The notes under the pieces were generated by a model, which saw nothing but the letters and a program-made list of their open reading frames with translations, was not told where the DNA came from and searched no databases. Below, one piece after another: positions 2,441 to 37,732 of a stretch of DNA of 64,000 bases. Every line of letters starts with the position of its first letter. The first letter of the stretch is position 1. The DNA comes from an uncultured Veillonellaceae bacterium (lineage in GTDB: Bacteria; Bacillota; Negativicutes; JARBTT01). A program made the position numbers and the translations under genes. Location: NCBI GenBank assembly GCA_963805085.1, contig CAWDTA010000005.1:416001-480000 (forward strand), read 5' to 3'.

Positions 2441-2894
2441 GCGGTTGGGTGTATGTACCTAAAAAGGATATAGATGTGTAATCGTAAATTATCCATGTGT
2501 TCCTGCTAAAACCTATTTTTTCTACAATTTTTCTAAGAGAAATGATGCATTTGATATTTAACGGAAGTCTCAATTGATAAATGCTTCCGAAAGTTGTATA
2601 AATTTCATACAAATCCTCCGACTTTTTGAAGCGGGGGATTTTTTTCTGCAACACTAATTTAGGAGATACGTTAGCAATAAACGAAGTCGTTATTCCCGGA
2701 GAAAGCACATCGCTTCCTGATATTCTTTTATTTAATTGCTATAATGATAATTTTAAATTCAAAATATTATCATTATATAATCATAAAGTAATCAAAAATA
2801 TTAATAAATATCATAACAATATTGCAATGTTATTATCTAAATGTTATCATAGTCTAAGAATGTTATTACTTTTTAGGAAGAAGGTTGTATTACT

Positions 2895-4406
2895 ATGCAA
2901 GAAATAAAAAAATTGCAGTACTACGTAAACGGAGAATTCAAAACTTCTAAAACCGAAGTCTATTCGGATGCCTTTGATCCAAGTACCGGAGAAATCATTG
3001 CTAAAGTACCGCGTTGTACTCCGGAGGAAGTAACAGAAGCCATTGCTAGTGCGAAGGCTGCATATCCTGCCTGGTCAGCGACACCAGTAATAAAAAGGGT
3101 TCAAATATTGTATAAATTTCGTGAACTCTTAGTAGAGAACATGGAAGAACTTACACATTTAGTAGCATTAGAAAACGGAAAAGCTTGGAGCGAAGCTGAA
3201 GGCGATGTACTAAAGGCTAAAGAAGGAACAGAACAAGCATTGTCGGCACCTTCTTTAATGATGGGCGAAATCCTTTTGGATGCCTCCCAAAGCTATGACA
3301 CTGTATCTTATCGCGAACCGCTTGGTGTATTCGCTGGTATTATTCCTTTCAATTTTCCCGCAATGATTCCTATGGGGTGGATGACTCCAATCTGTATTGC
3401 TTGCGGTAATACGATTGTATTAAAAGCTGCGACTTTTACACCACAAACATGCATGCGTATCGCTGAATTGTATAAAGAAGCAGGCTTGCCTGATGGCGTT
3501 ATTAATATTGTCACGTGTTCTCGGCATGAGGCAGAAATTTTATTGACACATCCTGATGTTAAAGGTATCACCTTTGTAGGTTCTACCGAAGTTGGTATGC
3601 ACATTTATTCAACAGCTGCTGCTTCAGGAAAAAGAGTGCAGGCCTTATGTGAAGCAAAAAATCATGCATTGGTCTTAGAAGATGCGCCGATTGACCGAAC
3701 AGCCGCGGGAATTGTGAATGCCGCGTTCGGTTGCGCTGGTGAACGTTGTATGGCGTTACCTGTTGTGGTTGTGCAAGAAAGCATAGCTGATGCCTTGGTG
3801 AAAGCACTTATTGAACAAGCAAAAACGCTGACCATCGGACCAGCTTATGATAAAACAACAAAACTCGGACCTGTCATTAATGCCGCTCATAAAAAATCAG
3901 TTCTAAACTGGATTCAGCAGGGGATTGATGAAGGTGCTGATCTTGTTCTTGACGGAAGAAATGTTACCGTAAAAGGCTATGAAAAAGGTTTTTATGTTGG
4001 ACCTACTATCCTAGATAATGTGAAAGATAATATGAGTGTCGGAACAAAAGAAATTTTCGGACCTGTACTTTGTATTAAAAGAGTGAAAACGTTTGAAGAA
4101 GGACTTGCTATAATGAATGATAATCCTTATGCTAATGGCTCTGTAATCTTCACTCAAAATGGCCATTATGCTAGAGAATTCGTTCGTCATACCGATGGCG
4201 GCATGGTTGGCGTAAACGTTGGCATTCCTGTCCCAGTTGGAATGTTCCCGTTCAACGGACATAAAAAATCCTTCTTTGGTGATTTGCACTGCCTAGGAAA
4301 AGATGGGTATCGTTTTTATACGGAAAGGAAAGTTGTGACCACTCACTGGTTTGATGAGCATGAGAAAAAAGCAAAAACTGTTAGTACTTGGGATGGAACA
4401 ATTTGA
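2895..4406 (+). CDS. iolA: CoA-acylating (methyl)malonate-semialdehyde dehydrogenase
   Basis: ALDH fold: PFNFPAMIP, FVGST, AKNH, GERCMA catalytic Cys, EIFGPV, GVNVGIPVP. Confidence 0.9.
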   Translation: MQEIKKLQYYVNGEFKTSKTEVYSDAFDPSTGEIIAKVPRCTPEEVTEAIASAKAAYPAWSATPVIKRVQILYKFRELLVENMEELTHLVALENGKAWSEAEGDVLKAKEGTEQALSAPSLMMGEILLDASQSYDTVSYREPLGVFAGIIPFNFPAMIPMGWMTPICIACGNTIVLKAATFTPQTCMRIAELYKEAGLPDGVINIVTCSRHEAEILLTHPDVKGITFVGSTEVGMHIYSTAAASGKRVQALCEAKNHALVLEDAPIDRTAAGIVNAAFGCAGERCMALPVVVVQESIADALVKALIEQAKTLTIGPAYDKTTKLGPVINAAHKKSVLNWIQQGIDEGADLVLDGRNVTVKGYEKGFYVGPTILDNVKDNMSVGTKEIFGPVLCIKRVKTFEEGLAIMNDNPYANGSVIFTQNGHYAREFVRHTDGGMVGVNVGIPVPVGMFPFNGHKKSFFGDLHCLGKDGYRFYTERKVVTTHWFDEHEKKAKTVSTWDGTI

Positions 4407-4474
4407 TAAATAAATTAAGGCACACCACCTTATGCATCATTGAATTGCTCCAGTTAAATTAATAGCTGATGACG

Positions 4475-4522
4475 ATGGTCACAATAACATAATAAAATAT
4501 GTTATTGTGACCATTTTTTTTT
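4475..4522 (+). terminator. Intrinsic terminator after iolA/mmsA
   Basis: atggtcacaataacata-loop-tatgttattgtgaccat followed by a T tract. Confidence 0.8.
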
Positions 4523-4825
4523 ATTGTGTTTTAGAACAGAAAATTTAGATTATAATATAGATGAATATATTTTATAGAGACAAAGAGCATCTCTGCTCTT
4601 TGTGTTAAACGTAATAAGAAGGTTACCTTGGTATAAGCAATATAGGTGCAACAATAGGTAAATATATAATCTGAGCCGTTATAATAGCTGCGTCTTGTAA
4701 TGTAGAACAAAGAACTATACTAGTGGTTTTCATTATTATATTAAAAAGAACATTATTTATAGCTGACACATTTATGTGATTTGTTTTGAAGAATGTTCTT
4801 TCTTTTTGTAAGATTAGAAGATTTA

Positions 4826-5377
4826 TTAAAGATCCAATTGCTTGATAATACCGTTCGAAAAAGAATCTGACATGAGTAAAGCTTCTTTTTCAATTTGGTC
4901 AAATATAAGGATATCTTTTCTGTATTCTTTCTTTAAGTGGGCAACGGCTTCTTCTTTGGTTAACGCTAAGTGTTTGTACCACATAGATTGCATGGATTGT
5001 TTGGTCCAATTGGGATTAATATGATTTAGGAAACAGACGATTTCATCAGCATTGTGATACCAACGGGCTTCGGCATTTTCGGCTAATGATTGGTCATTAC
5101 TTTTGGCGGCGCTAATAAGTTCAGCTGCGATTAGTAGATGTTCTTTGATTAAATAACCAAATTCCATGGCATCTTGATTTTTATAATAACGTTTAAAAAG
5201 TTGGGCAAAATCTGACGCATTGCGTAATAAACGCTCATTGGTTTGTTTTAAATTTGGGAGATTATCAATAAGGCTTATTATGGTTAGCCTGGTCCAGTAT
5301 ACATGCTGTTCCCATAATAAACGGAAGTGATCTCTGGTAAAGAGCTTGGCACTATTAAAGCACAAACGTTCAGTCAT
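4826..5377 (-). CDS. Conserved helical Firmicute protein of unknown function (family often mislabelled 'acetylglutamate kinase')
   Basis: LWEQHVYWTRLTIIS, HLLIAAEL, WYHNADEI, INPNW motifs; no kinase motifs. Confidence 0.7.
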   Translation of the reverse strand: MTERLCFNSAKLFTRDHFRLLWEQHVYWTRLTIISLIDNLPNLKQTNERLLRNASDFAQLFKRYYKNQDAMEFGYLIKEHLLIAAELISAAKSNDQSLAENAEARWYHNADEIVCFLNHINPNWTKQSMQSMWYKHLALTKEEAVAHLKKEYRKDILIFDQIEKEALLMSDSFSNGIIKQLDL

Positions 5378-8479: not shown

Positions 8480-8507
8480 TCAAAATAAAGTGAGGTGGAT
8501 TTTTAAA

Positions 8508-9083
8508 GTGTTTCAAGATCTTGTAATGAAAAACCGTAGTTATAGACGTTTTTTTGAAGAAGAAAAAATTACACAGGAAACGTTACTTAATTTAGTAGAT
8601 TATGCCAGGGTGGTGCCATCTGGAGCGAATAAGCAGGCACTTCGCTATTATCTTGCGAATGAGAAAGAACATAATGAACAGATATTTCAAACGTTAGGCT
8701 GGGCGGGATATTTAAAAGATTGGCAGGGGCCAGTTGCTGGCGAAAGACCAGCCGCCTACATTATTTTACTGCAAGATAGCAGTTATAAGATGGCTGCTAG
8801 TTTTGATGCTGGTATCGTTGCACAGACGATATTGCTTGGTGCAACTGAAATAGGACTTGGAGGCTGCATGATTGGCAATATCCAGGCTGAAAAGTTAAAA
8901 CAAGTATTAAATCTTGCAGGAAATTTAGAGATTGTACTTGTCATTGCGCTTGGAAAACCAAAAGAATCAGTTGTGATTGAAACAATGAATGGCAACGAAA
9001 ATATCAAATACTGGCGCGATGAACAGCAGATCCATCACGTACCAAAACGGAGCTTACACGATATTATCGTAAGTTCAAAGTAA
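8508..9083 (+). CDS. Nitroreductase family protein
   Basis: NRSYRRF, PSGANKQ, GLGGCMIG; GTG start after a GAGGTG RBS. Confidence 0.9.
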   Translation: MFQDLVMKNRSYRRFFEEEKITQETLLNLVDYARVVPSGANKQALRYYLANEKEHNEQIFQTLGWAGYLKDWQGPVAGERPAAYIILLQDSSYKMAASFDAGIVAQTILLGATEIGLGGCMIGNIQAEKLKQVLNLAGNLEIVLVIALGKPKESVVIETMNGNENIKYWRDEQQIHHVPKRSLHDIIVSSK

Positions 9084-9148
9084 TCAAATTGAGATGAATA
9101 AAAAACAGAGATAACATTCCTTTTATTTAGGAAGTTATCTCTGTTTCA

Positions 9149-9427
9149 TTATAAGCCGTGTTTTACTCTATCGTGTTCTTCAGCGCGTTTGGCATTATTC
9201 CATCTATCTACGGTACCAACGAGATAGCCGGTAATGCGACGAATGCGGTCAAATTTAACTGGATCAAAATCATATTTCATCTCAACTTCATCGTTATCAA
9301 TTGTTAATTCTAAATTTTTCAATATTTGATTGGGATGATTCATTGTAATATATTCAATATAATTTAAAATCTCTTGTTTTTCAATTTCTCCATTGTGTAC
9401 GGTAACGTTTACATTACTGATGATCAT
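9149..9427 (-). CDS. Small protein with the NrdD C-terminal glycyl-radical motif
   Basis: Ends RIRRITGYLVGTVDRWNNAKRAEEHDRVKH; strong GGAGG RBS; shares a terminator at ~9101-9147. Confidence 0.85.
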   Translation of the reverse strand: MIISNVNVTVHNGEIEKQEILNYIEYITMNHPNQILKNLELTIDNDEVEMKYDFDPVKFDRIRRITGYLVGTVDRWNNAKRAEEHDRVKHGL

Positions 9428-9694
9428 AGCTTATTCCTCCAAAATGAATTTATTATTAATTTATAACCGTTATTAATTAATTCTATAGCTTATTTAAAAC
9501 TCCTGCTAATGATTTAAAATAAAGATGAATCATTTTATCTAAGGAACATAGGATGCTGCTCTTTTAGCAAAGCTAGTAAATAATTTTTGATTTTATGATA
9601 TAATGAATGGGCTAAATGTATAGGCTAGCTGTATAGGAAAACCTAGTTTAGATAAAATATAGCTTGAACTATCATCGTTTTAAGGAGATGTCAG

Positions 9695-10123
9695 ATGACT
9701 TTTTTTAATGATTTTAAAAAATTTGCTATGCGTGGCAATGTTTTAGATATGGCTGTTGGGGTTGTCATTGGAGCAGCGTTTGGAAAAATTATTTCTTCTT
9801 TCGTGTCTAATATTTTAATGCCACCATTAGGATTGTTGGTTGGTAGAATGGATTTTTCAAATCTTTTTATCAATCTTTCAGGTCAATCCGTACATACGTT
9901 AGCTGAAGCGCAAGCAGCTAATGTTCCAGTCATTGCGTATGGTTTATTTTTAAATGCTGTAATTGATTTTACTATTGTAGCATTCGCAATTTTCTTTTTG
10001 CTTAGACAAATAAATCGCTTTTGTCCGAAACCTGAACCTGAAGTTGAGCGGAAATGCCCATACTGTTTTTCCACCATTCATGAAAAAGCAACGAGATGTT
10101 CGCATTGTACATCGACACTTTAA
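9695..10123 (+). CDS. mscL: Large-conductance mechanosensitive channel with C-terminal zinc-ribbon-like tail
   Basis: FKKFAMRGNVLDMAVGVVIGAAFGKII; YGLFLNAVIDF; CPYC...CSHC. Confidence 0.95.
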   Translation: MTFFNDFKKFAMRGNVLDMAVGVVIGAAFGKIISSFVSNILMPPLGLLVGRMDFSNLFINLSGQSVHTLAEAQAANVPVIAYGLFLNAVIDFTIVAFAIFFLLRQINRFCPKPEPEVERKCPYCFSTIHEKATRCSHCTSTL

Positions 10124-10226
10124 CGGTGTCATCCTTATTACATAAAACGCTTACCCATTATGCGTGTTAAGCGATTTTATTTATAAATTTATAATTTCTA
10201 TAAAGAAAAGAGGTCAATATTTTATT

Positions 10227-11099
10227 ATGGATAGAAATGGTCAATGCTGGTGTGGTAGTGGTAAAAAATATAAAAAGTGTCATTTGAGTTTTGATGAAAA
10301 AATGGATAACATAAAACTAGATGAACTAAAAGGACATATATTACCACCACGCAGTATTATTAAAACACAAGCTGATATTGAAGGCATAAAAAAAAGTGCA
10401 AAGATTAATGATGCTGCTTTGGATTTAGTAGCTAGTCGCATCAAAGTTGGTATTGATACTGAAACATTAAATCAATTAGCACATGATTATATTGTGGAGC
10501 AGGGTGGGATTCCTGCTTGCTTAAATTATAGTGGTTATCCTAAGAGTATTTGTATTTCAATTAATCAGGTTGTGTGTCATGGCATCCCATCCAAAGATAC
10601 AATTTTAAAAGAAGGTGATATTGTTAATGTAGATATCACGACGATTTTAGATGGGTATTATGCAGATGCATCACGAATGTTTATGATTGGCAAAGTAAGT
10701 GAAGAGGCTGAAAAGCTTGTACGAGTAGCAAGAGAATGCATGGAAAAAGGTATCGCTGCGATTCAGCCATGGGGCTATCTAGGAGATATTGGTGCTGCGG
10801 TAGAGCACCATGCCCACGCAAATGGCTATTCTGTTGTAGTTGATTTGGGTGGGCATGGTGTCGGTAAGAAGTTTCATGAGGAACCATTTGTGCCACATGT
10901 AGGAAAACATGGCACGGGAATGTTATTGGTACCGGGTATGGTATTAACGGTGGAACCGATGATTAACATTGGCGGCTATGAAGTTTATACGGATAGTGAA
11001 GATGATTGGACTGTTTATACGGAAGATGATTCTTTATCGGCGCAATGGGAACATACGATCTTGATTACGGAAACAGGCGTTGAAATTTTAGCAAAATAA
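10227..11099 (+). CDS. map: Methionine aminopeptidase type I with N-terminal SEC-C motif
   Basis: CWCGSGKKYKKCH; CHGIP, DIVNVD, GHGVG, EPMIN, SAQWEHT. Confidence 0.95.
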   Translation: MDRNGQCWCGSGKKYKKCHLSFDEKMDNIKLDELKGHILPPRSIIKTQADIEGIKKSAKINDAALDLVASRIKVGIDTETLNQLAHDYIVEQGGIPACLNYSGYPKSICISINQVVCHGIPSKDTILKEGDIVNVDITTILDGYYADASRMFMIGKVSEEAEKLVRVARECMEKGIAAIQPWGYLGDIGAAVEHHAHANGYSVVVDLGGHGVGKKFHEEPFVPHVGKHGTGMLLVPGMVLTVEPMINIGGYEVYTDSEDDWTVYTEDDSLSAQWEHTILITETGVEILAK

Positions 11100-35863: not shown

Positions 35864-37732
35864 TTATTTTAGCCCAAGGCGTTTTAATTTACGCCACAGC
35901 GTCGAGCGACTTATGCCCAGTATTTTTGCGGCTTCAGCATATTTTCCTTTCGTTAAGGTAAGAGCTTGTTTGATTTCCTCTAATTCATTGGGGATTAGTT
36001 GAGTCGGAATGGTGCAATCATCTGAATCTTCAAGCATGAGATTGATAATGGATGCATCAATAATTTCACGTTTGTGAATTGCTATCACTCGTTCGATAAT
36101 GTTTTTCAGTTCACGTATATTACCAGGCCAGGTATAATTCGTAAGTGCTTTTGTGGCGGATGAGGCTAGCTTTAAATGGTTTTTTATTATACCTGAATGC
36201 TCTCTTAAGAAAAAATCAGCTAATAATTTAATGTCTTTTTTTCGCTCGCGCAGAGGCGGAATTTTAAGTTGTAGGACATTTAGACGATAATATAAATCTG
36301 CTCGAAATTTATTTTCGTTTATGAGAGTCTTTAAATTTTTATTTGTAGCAGCAATAACACGAACGTCAATATGGATAATTCGATCGCTGCCTAAACGCAT
36401 AACATTTCTTTCTTGTAAAATGCGTAAAAGTTTGCTTTGCATAACATAGTCCATTTCGGCAATTTCATCTAGAAAAATTGTTCCACCGTGGGCTACTTCA
36501 AATAATCCTGGTTTTCCTTTAGGATTTGCTCCGGTAAAGGCTCCACCTACATAACCGAAAAGTTCGCTTTCGAGTATTTGGGCGGGGAGAGCAGCGCAGC
36601 GCAGTTAATCGCTACAAATGGTCCTTGATGGCTATTGCTATAGCTATGGATGCTTTGGGAAAATATCTCTTTACCGGTGCCTGTTCCGCCAACAATTAAA
36701 ATATTTGAATTTGTTAAGGCAAATTGCTTCGCTATTTCTATTATCTGTTTCATTTCTATAGTCGTATTCTCGATGTCTTTGAAAGAAAAATTTGCAATAT
36801 GTCCAGAAGCATAAATTCGGCGTCTTACCCGAGCCTCCATTTGTTGAATTTGGGTTGCGTCTTGAAAGGTGACAACAGCACCAACGGTTTTGCTATTGAC
36901 GATGATAGCTATTTTATTGCATAAAACATCAACTTCATTTATTTTTAGAATTTGCCCTAAGTCATCAATTCCTGATTGTATTACTTGCTCAAGATTAAGG
37001 TTAGGCCAAACTTTGGTTATTTTTTTACCAGTAGACTCAATGGCATTCATACCTGTAATACGTTCTGCTATGGGGTTGAAAAAAGTAATGCAATAATTGC
37101 TGTCAACTGAAATGATTCCTTCATAGGCGTAATCAAGGACAGCTCGAAAAAGACTGGTTTTTGCTTTTTCTAAGTTGCGTGCATGAGCAATTCGTTTTGC
37201 TTCTTGCGCCGCTTGTAAGATACCTTCGACACCACTATTCATAAGTTCAAATGGGTAGTGGTGTTTTTGTGCTGCTTTTTTCGTAATGAATCCGCCGATA
37301 ACGACATTTACGCCATCGCAGAAAGCCTTTGCTACTTGAGCTTCGGCTTCACTCTCATCATTTATGGGATAGGGTCTGATATCGACATCGAGAATTGTAT
37401 TCAAACAGTCAATTCCCTGAAGCATTGAAGGGAAAGAAACAGCTCCGATAGAACGGCCGTGTAATTTTGCTTTCTCAACAGTTCGAATAATATCAAAACC
37501 AGTAATAGGAACCTCAACCACAGTAACAGGAAAATTAGATTTTTTTATAGCTAGTGCAGTGCCACCTCTAGTAATGATAATTTCAGTTCCATTTGCGACG
37601 AGTGCAGATACCATTCGTAATCCTTCACTGAGTAATCCTTGCTCCATGTTTATCATCATGGCAACCTTTAAACGTTGCACGGGCAATTTTCAGCATACTG
37701 GAATGGGGAGCTAGAAATGTTATTTGGGACAT
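35864..37732 (-). pseudogene. PrpR-like sigma54/Fis-type regulator (PrpR_N-PAS-AAA-HTH) with two frameshifts
   Basis: RBS and ATG at 37732 (MSQITFLAP); frameshift at ~37650; 5-nt duplication at ~36595 between INCAA and LPAQILESELFGY...GAFTGA. Confidence 0.85.

Follow-up and report, generated by a model that had tools for sequence, protein, structure and literature searches.

Small proteins bearing the NrdD glycyl-radical loop: a candidate spare part for class III ribonucleotide reductase in Bacillota

The 92-residue protein P0001, encoded in the 64 kb window (i.e. the whole 64,000-nucleotide stretch of DNA analysed here), joins a copy of the glycyl-radical loop of NrdD to a family-specific N-terminal domain. 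On the combined evidence of sequence, gene order, loop loss in NrdD, selection, matches to the NrdR box and a structural model, we consider it probable (about 0.82) that P0001 provides class III ribonucleotide reductase (RNR) with its glycyl-radical loop in trans. For the family as a whole we favour, with less assurance, the view that it represents the first spare-part system of a glycyl-radical enzyme beyond the formate lyases, and that under its influence class III RNR has more than once become a two-chain enzyme, with a large, oxygen-insensitive, 'pre-cleaved' catalytic body and a small disposable radical cartridge. The features concerned, in window coordinates, are as follows.

9149..9427, minus strand: P0001, stand-alone NrdD glycyl-radical loop carrier, 92 aa (ORF list, translation)
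9257..9427, minus strand: beta-alpha-beta-beta domain, residues 1-57, Cys-free, family-specific, predicted docking domain (AlphaFold2, conservation, interface model)
9158..9265, minus strand: NrdD-type glycyl-radical loop and C-terminal helix, residues 55-90 (Pfam NRDD, 8P23, L026 NrdD)
9227..9229, minus strand: codon of Gly67, predicted radical glycine (alignment with Prevotella copri NrdD Gly711)
9435..9440, minus strand: ribosome-binding site GGAGGA of P0001 (sequence; 7 nt before the ATG)
about 9102..9147, no strand assigned: strong hairpin between P0001 and the convergent nitroreductase gene (-23.4 kcal/mol, z -6.6)

The initial annotation had assigned the last ~35 residues of P0001 to the NrdD C-terminus, radical glycine included, and the comparisons made here bear this out. 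Residues 56-90 correspond to the C-terminal 31 positions of the Pfam NRDD model (532-562 of 562, E 2e-8), residues 58-90 match the P. copri NrdD of structure 8P23 (E 5.6e-9), and residues 55-90 are identical at 29 of 36 positions to a full Clostridia NrdD (L026), with no convincing alignment for the rest. In P. copri NrdD, according to the available text of PMC11226230, the radical resides on Gly711 and is followed by Tyr712; the alignment with 8P23 thus identifies Gly67 of P0001, in a loop that reads RITGYL, as the counterpart of Gly711. NrdD was the sole strong match, and Pfam, NCBIfam, PHROGs and PDB sequence scans gave no match to the PFL or GrcA families at E up to 0.1. P0001 scores 56.8 bits against the NCBIfam NrdD cut-off of 736 and, with 92 residues and no cysteine, lacks the ten-stranded barrel and finger-loop Cys of NrdD.

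Conservation of the loop was assessed in two sets of sequences. The motif RRITGY is present in all of the 120 top homologues, which were chosen by similarity, and CxxC precedes the loop in none of them; together with the absence of any cysteine from the translation of 9149-9427 (minus strand, ATG start), this agrees with the earlier description of a Cys-free N-terminal part without a Zn ribbon. The second, tail-independent set came from a profile of the N-terminal domain alone, which recovered 421 representatives at E 0.001, of which the best 150 were inspected. Sixty-five of these carry the Gly motif, 10 carry part of it and 75 have none, the last mostly looking truncated or frameshifted by eye; where the tail helix is in frame (51 of the 150), 43 keep R[IV]TG[YF], 4 are degenerate in frame and 4 have internal deletions. 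A wider pool of small-protein candidates (50-161 aa), in which 7999 of the 8000 scored pass E 0.001, may mix family members with NrdD fragments. In many small proteins and NrdDs (e.g. L002, L015, L020, L004) the C-terminus is rich in Cys (CC, CxC); such tails come after the helix in 31 of the 120 top homologues, persist in most loop-less NrdDs (see below), and possibly have a redox or metal role.

AlphaFold2 predicts a compact structure for residues 1-57 (mean pLDDT 95.9; 77.7 for the whole protein). Glu19 and Tyr52 are invariant and Tyr23 is at least 90% conserved among 78 homologues, and the equivalents of all three sit in the modelled interface of the homologous pair described below. Foldseek searches against the PDB (with the whole model) and BFVD returned nothing at E up to 0.001, and the Atlas gave no usable non-NRDD match. 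In VIA-align the N-terminal domain came closest to the ToxR periplasmic domain, with Z 6.0 and an rmsd of 2.5 over 57 residues, followed by HPF-like folds at Z about 4; these scores fall within the range of common arrangements, i.e. the predicted domain has no clear structural relative, and novelty of fold is not implied. No full NrdD occurs among the best 150 of the 421 N-domain matches, and nine candidates among longer proteins yielded no fused form of the domain, the latter being weak evidence.

The genome scan gave at least 532 confirmed candidates, of which the best 80 loci, clustered by kinship, are considered here; 78 are labelled Bacillota and two have no phylum. Together with P0001 these make 81 copies, all of 89-100 aa and all with their own start and ribosome-binding site. 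Relatives are automatically annotated as 'anaerobic ribonucleoside-triphosphate reductase' or 'hypothetical protein'. The closest named relative among the loci listed is L001, from a Massilibacillus MAG (Negativicutes), which is 97% identical to P0001 and syntenic; the pair gives dN 0.016 and dS 0.267, from which we conclude that P0001 is neither a chance ORF nor a decayed fragment. As dN was far below dS in all nine stand-alone small-gene pairs tested, the sequences indicate a large Bacillota family under purifying selection. Two of 16 phage matches span the whole protein, both on unverified, unannotated contigs without nrdD or nrdG, and of 53 plasmid matches the 30 listed belong, in nearly every case that carries an annotation, to the tails of full NrdDs. 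An intact copy is fused behind another domain in P0284 (236 aa), P0340, P0365 and P0382 have long acidic tails, and Atlas cluster rank 3 is half viral among its few labelled members; these are hints of mobile-element carriage.

P0001 had been described as a monocistronic gene with its own strong ribosome-binding site and with no nrdD or nrdG nearby, and each part of that description holds. Upstream, mscL (9695, plus strand) is divergent; downstream, the nitroreductase gene (ending at 9083, plus strand) is convergent; GGAGGA at 9435-9440 stands 7 nt from the ATG; and a tblastn search of the entire window with NrdD, NrdG and NrdR found the P0001 ORF alone. None of 200 shuffled sequences was as stable as the hairpin at about 9102-9147, which is likely to be a terminator shared by the nitroreductase gene and P0001; a simple terminator scan made no call there. 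A promoter scan found 10 sites against a mean of 4.6 and was uninformative.

Most of the best 80 loci resemble P0001 in gene context, 48 being stand-alone, whilst seven have the small gene with nrdG only and 25 have nrdD upstream of it. All 25 have nrdG downstream, and in 24 nrdD and the small gene are directly adjacent, those of L060 lying 346 nt apart; in Clostridia operons nrdR follows nrdG. The identities of representative NrdD, NrdG and NrdR proteins were taken from NCBIfam. Eight of the 25 NrdDs are full-length, the complete enzyme and a further loop thus being specified by neighbouring genes. In the other 17 the ITGY...RVKH loop and the helix are missing, and the Zn-site motif is retained with a short tail. 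The finger-loop MGCR is retained in 16 of these 17 loop-less NrdDs, the remaining one being cut by a contig end (L012, which shares its bin with L034); 15 also have HxHD and the NxN flap, the exceptions being this fragment and a frameshifted copy (L039, with nrdD in two frames). Sixteen of the loop-less loci are Selenomonadaceae-type, including the isolate Anaerovibrio slackiae (L037), and one is from a Clostridium MAG; every Selenomonadaceae-type locus with an adjacent nrdD (16 of 16) has the loop-less form. The loop-less nrdDs are themselves under purifying selection (e.g. dN 0.088, dS 1.48).

Between the stop codon of a loop-less nrdD and the ATG of the small gene lie 16-68 nt, in all three frames. 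Programmed frameshifting or read-through, considered as a means of joining the two products, was rejected, since the gaps fall in all three frames and the small genes have their own starts. In the eight full-length loci, the loop DNA of nrdD and of the small gene is closer within a locus (0.94) than between loci (0.87), and in L026 both share the private variant VRDRTKH, which suggests gene conversion or shared selection.

The initial annotation had offered a repair subunit and a split-NrdD subunit as alternatives. Both layouts are found in the family, with full-length NrdD present in 8 and loop-less NrdD in 17 of the best 80 of 532 loci; each part of the proposal therefore stands at family level, but as states of one system and not as alternatives.

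Further arrangements were seen in this set. Five Selenomonas/Mitsuokella-type loci (L029, L050, L066 and L078, at ~8500-10900, and L068, at 2700-4900) have the small gene and nrdG and no nrdD; in four of them the small gene directly follows an MscS-like gene, where relatives have a loop-less nrdD, and nrdD is lost or moved. The SAM synthetase gene metK lies near stand-alone copies in 14 loci (L008, L016, L017, L023, L024, L027, L028, L061, L064, L072, L074, L075, L079 and one more); NrdG consumes SAM, yet shared ancestry may account for this proximity. The small protein of L030, titled Anaerotignum, groups with Anaerovibrio copies, possibly reflecting a mislabelled or mixed bin, or transfer.

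Upstream regions were scored for NrdR boxes using a 14-mer consensus, the key positions of which agree with the available text of PMC13584703, and a match was defined as at least 13 of 14 positions. Such matches precede 26 of the 47 stand-alone copies with enough upstream DNA and none of 313 control upstream regions, although many of these loci are close kin and all were drawn from the 80 best of 532. With the box-pair pattern published in PMC12051234 (available text), matches are found for 16 of the 47 stand-alone copies against 4 of 313 controls, for 5 of the 7 loci with the small gene and nrdG, and for only 6 of 21 nrdD operons. To judge by these matches, NrdR control of the homologues points to co-regulation with RNR, not to induction by oxygen. 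Neither P0001 nor L001 has an NrdR box upstream (best 10 of 14), so P0001 may be controlled differently.

These observations bear on the role of P0001 itself, which, within the same trans-supply mechanism, could serve a split NrdD, encoded at another place in the genome, as its obligate second subunit. The consistently loop-less state of the Selenomonadaceae-type loci with adjacent nrdD argues for an obligate subunit, as does the fact that the closest listed relative of P0001 is also a Negativicutes MAG. On the other hand, P0001 is unlinked to nrdD and nrdG and has no NrdR-box match, which would be odd for a subunit needed in fixed ratio, and in the small-protein tree it falls outside the Selenomonadaceae clade, apart from the split-type copies. 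That tree is too poorly resolved to infer the NrdD type of P0001. We regard the obligate role as a real but lesser possibility, a spare-part role being somewhat more likely for P0001.

Loss of the loop is not confined to the operons above. The loop is absent from 106 of the 120 best matches to a loop-less NrdD C-terminal region, a count biased by the loop-less query, and these matches have several different tails; several loop-less NrdDs stop right at the loop (e.g. ...GFERIRRISC...). A tree of the NrdD core, cut after the Zn site, was built from 59 sequences, i.e. 23 from the loci (L012 and L039 being omitted as partial), 33 hand-picked from the 120 matches and three outgroups. To account for the loop-less state, the quick tree needs 5 changes, all 5 forced by supported branches, and the careful tree 6, with 4 so forced; the careful tree has a very long phage branch inside the ingroup. 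A single loop-less clade is rejected (p-AU 3e-6), and the sequences thus indicate that loop loss in NrdD arose at least four to five times. The small gene adjoins two of the five loop-less tree groups, gene context having covered those two groups. An assembly artefact was considered as the cause of loop loss and rejected, the cultured isolate A. slackiae showing it and the same tails recurring in many protein clusters. A genome that encodes a loop-less NrdD may also have a full-length nrdD at another site.

The loop-less tails run 17-30 residues past the CPxCG Zn site, and the radical glycine of full-length NrdDs lies 18-22 residues past it, so that these genes encode roughly the product of oxygen cleavage. 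Three of the tails end in an R-I-x-C-G-like stretch with a glycine near the expected distance, and 8 of 17 contain no glycine at all. Both loop-less NrdDs that were scanned exceed the NCBIfam cut-offs as ordinary NrdD, and annotation consequently hides them. The full-length NrdDs P0203-P0206, P0211, P0213, P0220 and P0240 have a precomputed PF01228 (Gly_radical) assignment beside NRDD.

A complex with a truncated NrdD, as suggested in the initial annotation, was modelled for the homologous A. slackiae pair (L037), using residues 95-761 of the cognate loop-less NrdD, its small protein (52% identical to P0001) and Zn. The small protein is predicted to dock with a score of 0.72, the best of three controls scoring 0.00; the mark that this score reaches was also reached by 116 of 157 solved pairs and by 2 of 215 mismatched pairs. 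Runs share at least 89% of contacts, with partner pLDDT of at least 81. On the NrdD side the modelled interface includes residues 454-456 (GCR, finger loop), the NxN flap, residues 712-718 and, in the tail that is left, residues 734-750; the small protein contributes the Gly loop and the conserved Glu20, Tyr24 and Tyr53. The best-defined contacts are predicted between NrdD 714-717 and Phe60/Glu61 of the small protein, and between the leftover NrdD tail 738-744 and residues 51-56 of the N-terminal domain. The loop contacts of the model may reflect recall from intact NrdD structures; no solved template was found for those of the N-terminal domain.

In the mechanism we propose, NrdG and SAM would place the radical on Gly67 of the small protein, and its FxRIRRITGY strand would stand in for the loop of NrdD, next to the strand that precedes the Zn site. 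The docked loop would bring the glycine to the finger-loop Cys (MGCR) of NrdD, and the N-terminal domain would grip the short NrdD segment that runs from the Zn site to the point of cleavage. The small protein has no need of a Zn site, as that of NrdD is retained. When full-length NrdD is present, the small protein would most likely be a spare part, used after oxygen has cut NrdD at the glycine, and with a loop-less NrdD, in the two lineages of known gene context, it is likely to be an obligate, replaceable radical subunit. We lean towards the view that this module evolved for oxygen repair.

An unlikely alternative is that the radical is supplied in trans for reasons other than oxygen repair, for example to activate the second protomer, which normally lacks a radical, or to increase the radical content; full-length NrdD would then use the small protein without being cleaved. 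The control of homologues is of NrdR type and not of oxygen-stress type, as this alternative would have it, and the available text of PMC12662201 describes the glycyl-radical domain as mobile and the radical content as typically under two per dimer. Against this, the loop-less NrdDs, in the length of their tails, mimic the cleavage product, and in the model the N-terminal domain binds the leftover NrdD segment.

That P0001 is an NrdG decoy, as also put forward in the initial annotation, or an inhibitor, titrating the activase or blocking the NrdD active site, now appears improbable. The small protein does have the activase's substrate loop, and the four copies with a degenerate loop motif (P0274, P0316, P0320, P0336) could be non-radical competitors. 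The reading nevertheless fits poorly, because the loop-less NrdDs are conserved yet have no radical glycine of their own; 17 of them are encoded beside the small gene and nrdG, and R[IV]TG[YF] is kept in most tail-independent matches with an in-frame helix. The four degenerate copies retain the N-terminal domain and tail helix, the glycine being replaced by Asp in two, and are possible inactive or regulatory paralogues. Finally, the notion that P0001 is a functionless leftover or mis-called nrdD fragment, to which the annotation of relatives only as reductase or 'hypothetical protein' might lend colour, is barely credible given the uniform length and own start of all copies and an N-terminal domain matching no full NrdD among the 150 best representatives, and is already contradicted by the selection data.

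The closest known parallel is that of the autonomous glycyl radical cofactors (IPR011140) GrcA/YfiD of E. coli and Y06I of phage T4, which, like P0001, are small stand-alone proteins whose C-terminal half copies a radical loop and whose N-terminal half is foreign to the enzyme. YfiD/GrcA repairs cleaved PFL, and the available text of PMC8683613 proposes the YfiD N-terminus and PFL residues 696-733 as a recognition pair, the N-terminal half helping binding and the segment before the cut acting as recognition element; a parallel contact is predicted in the A. slackiae model. The differences are nevertheless considerable. GrcA/YfiD copies the PFL loop RVSGY, and P0001 the NrdD loop RITGYL (PF13597); YfiD has a disordered N-terminal half, whereas that of P0001 is predicted to be folded (pLDDT 95.9); the small-gene family, unlike GrcA/YfiD, is linked to nrdD, nrdG and nrdR; and its NrdD partner repeatedly lacks its own loop, which the available texts do not report for PFL. 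By this analogy the P0001 family is GrcA-like in logic but is not a GrcA, having another parent enzyme, another N-terminal half and an RNR-linked context.

With NrdD itself, P0001 shares the Gly loop, the Tyr that follows, a conserved Arg and the C-terminal helix, but it has no Zn site, barrel or ATP cone, and is a separate gene with an added 57-residue domain. Split class II RNR (NrdJa/NrdJb; bioRxiv 10.1101/2022.04.23.489257, available text) likewise places a C-terminal functional domain on a second chain. NrdJa/NrdJb is, however, class II and B12-dependent, and NrdJb has IscU-like and zinc-finger domains and no radical site; in the P0001 family the detached part bears the radical residue and coexists also with full-length enzyme.

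A 2026 review (PMC13450708, available text) names formate lyases as the only glycyl-radical enzymes with identified spare parts and leaves undetermined whether further ones occur, and a 2021 paper (PMC8683613, available text) raises the same question of spare parts beyond formate lyases. The radical domain at the NrdD C-terminus or oxygen cleavage is described, and split enzymes only outside class III, in the available texts of PMC9669993, bioRxiv 10.1101/2022.04.23.489257, PMC12662201 and PMC12288474. Full-text literature searches listed no paper on an NrdD spare part or a loop-less NrdD; subscription papers and supplements lay largely outside their scope, and an earlier mention is possible.

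The family offers a concrete candidate spare part for an enzyme essential to anaerobes of the gut and rumen (Ruminococcus, Selenomonadaceae, Clostridia), and the loop-less NrdDs would be natural mimics of the oxygen-cleaved enzyme. If the proposal is true, a cell would need to remake about 90 residues after oxygen exposure instead of about 750. Confirmation would be relevant to the resumption of DNA synthesis in strict anaerobes that have been exposed to oxygen, would show how a repair factor can turn into an obligate subunit, and would suggest a way to make oxygen-sensitive radical enzymes repairable for biocatalysis.

Two other genes of the window merit mention. The mscL product (9695-10123, plus strand) has a C-terminal zinc-ribbon-like Cys motif, with a weak DZR match (E 0.0065) below the cut-off. 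At 35864-37686 (minus strand) a sigma-54-type activator is apparently split between two overlapping ORFs (36547-37686 and 35864-36454), for which a frameshift may be responsible.
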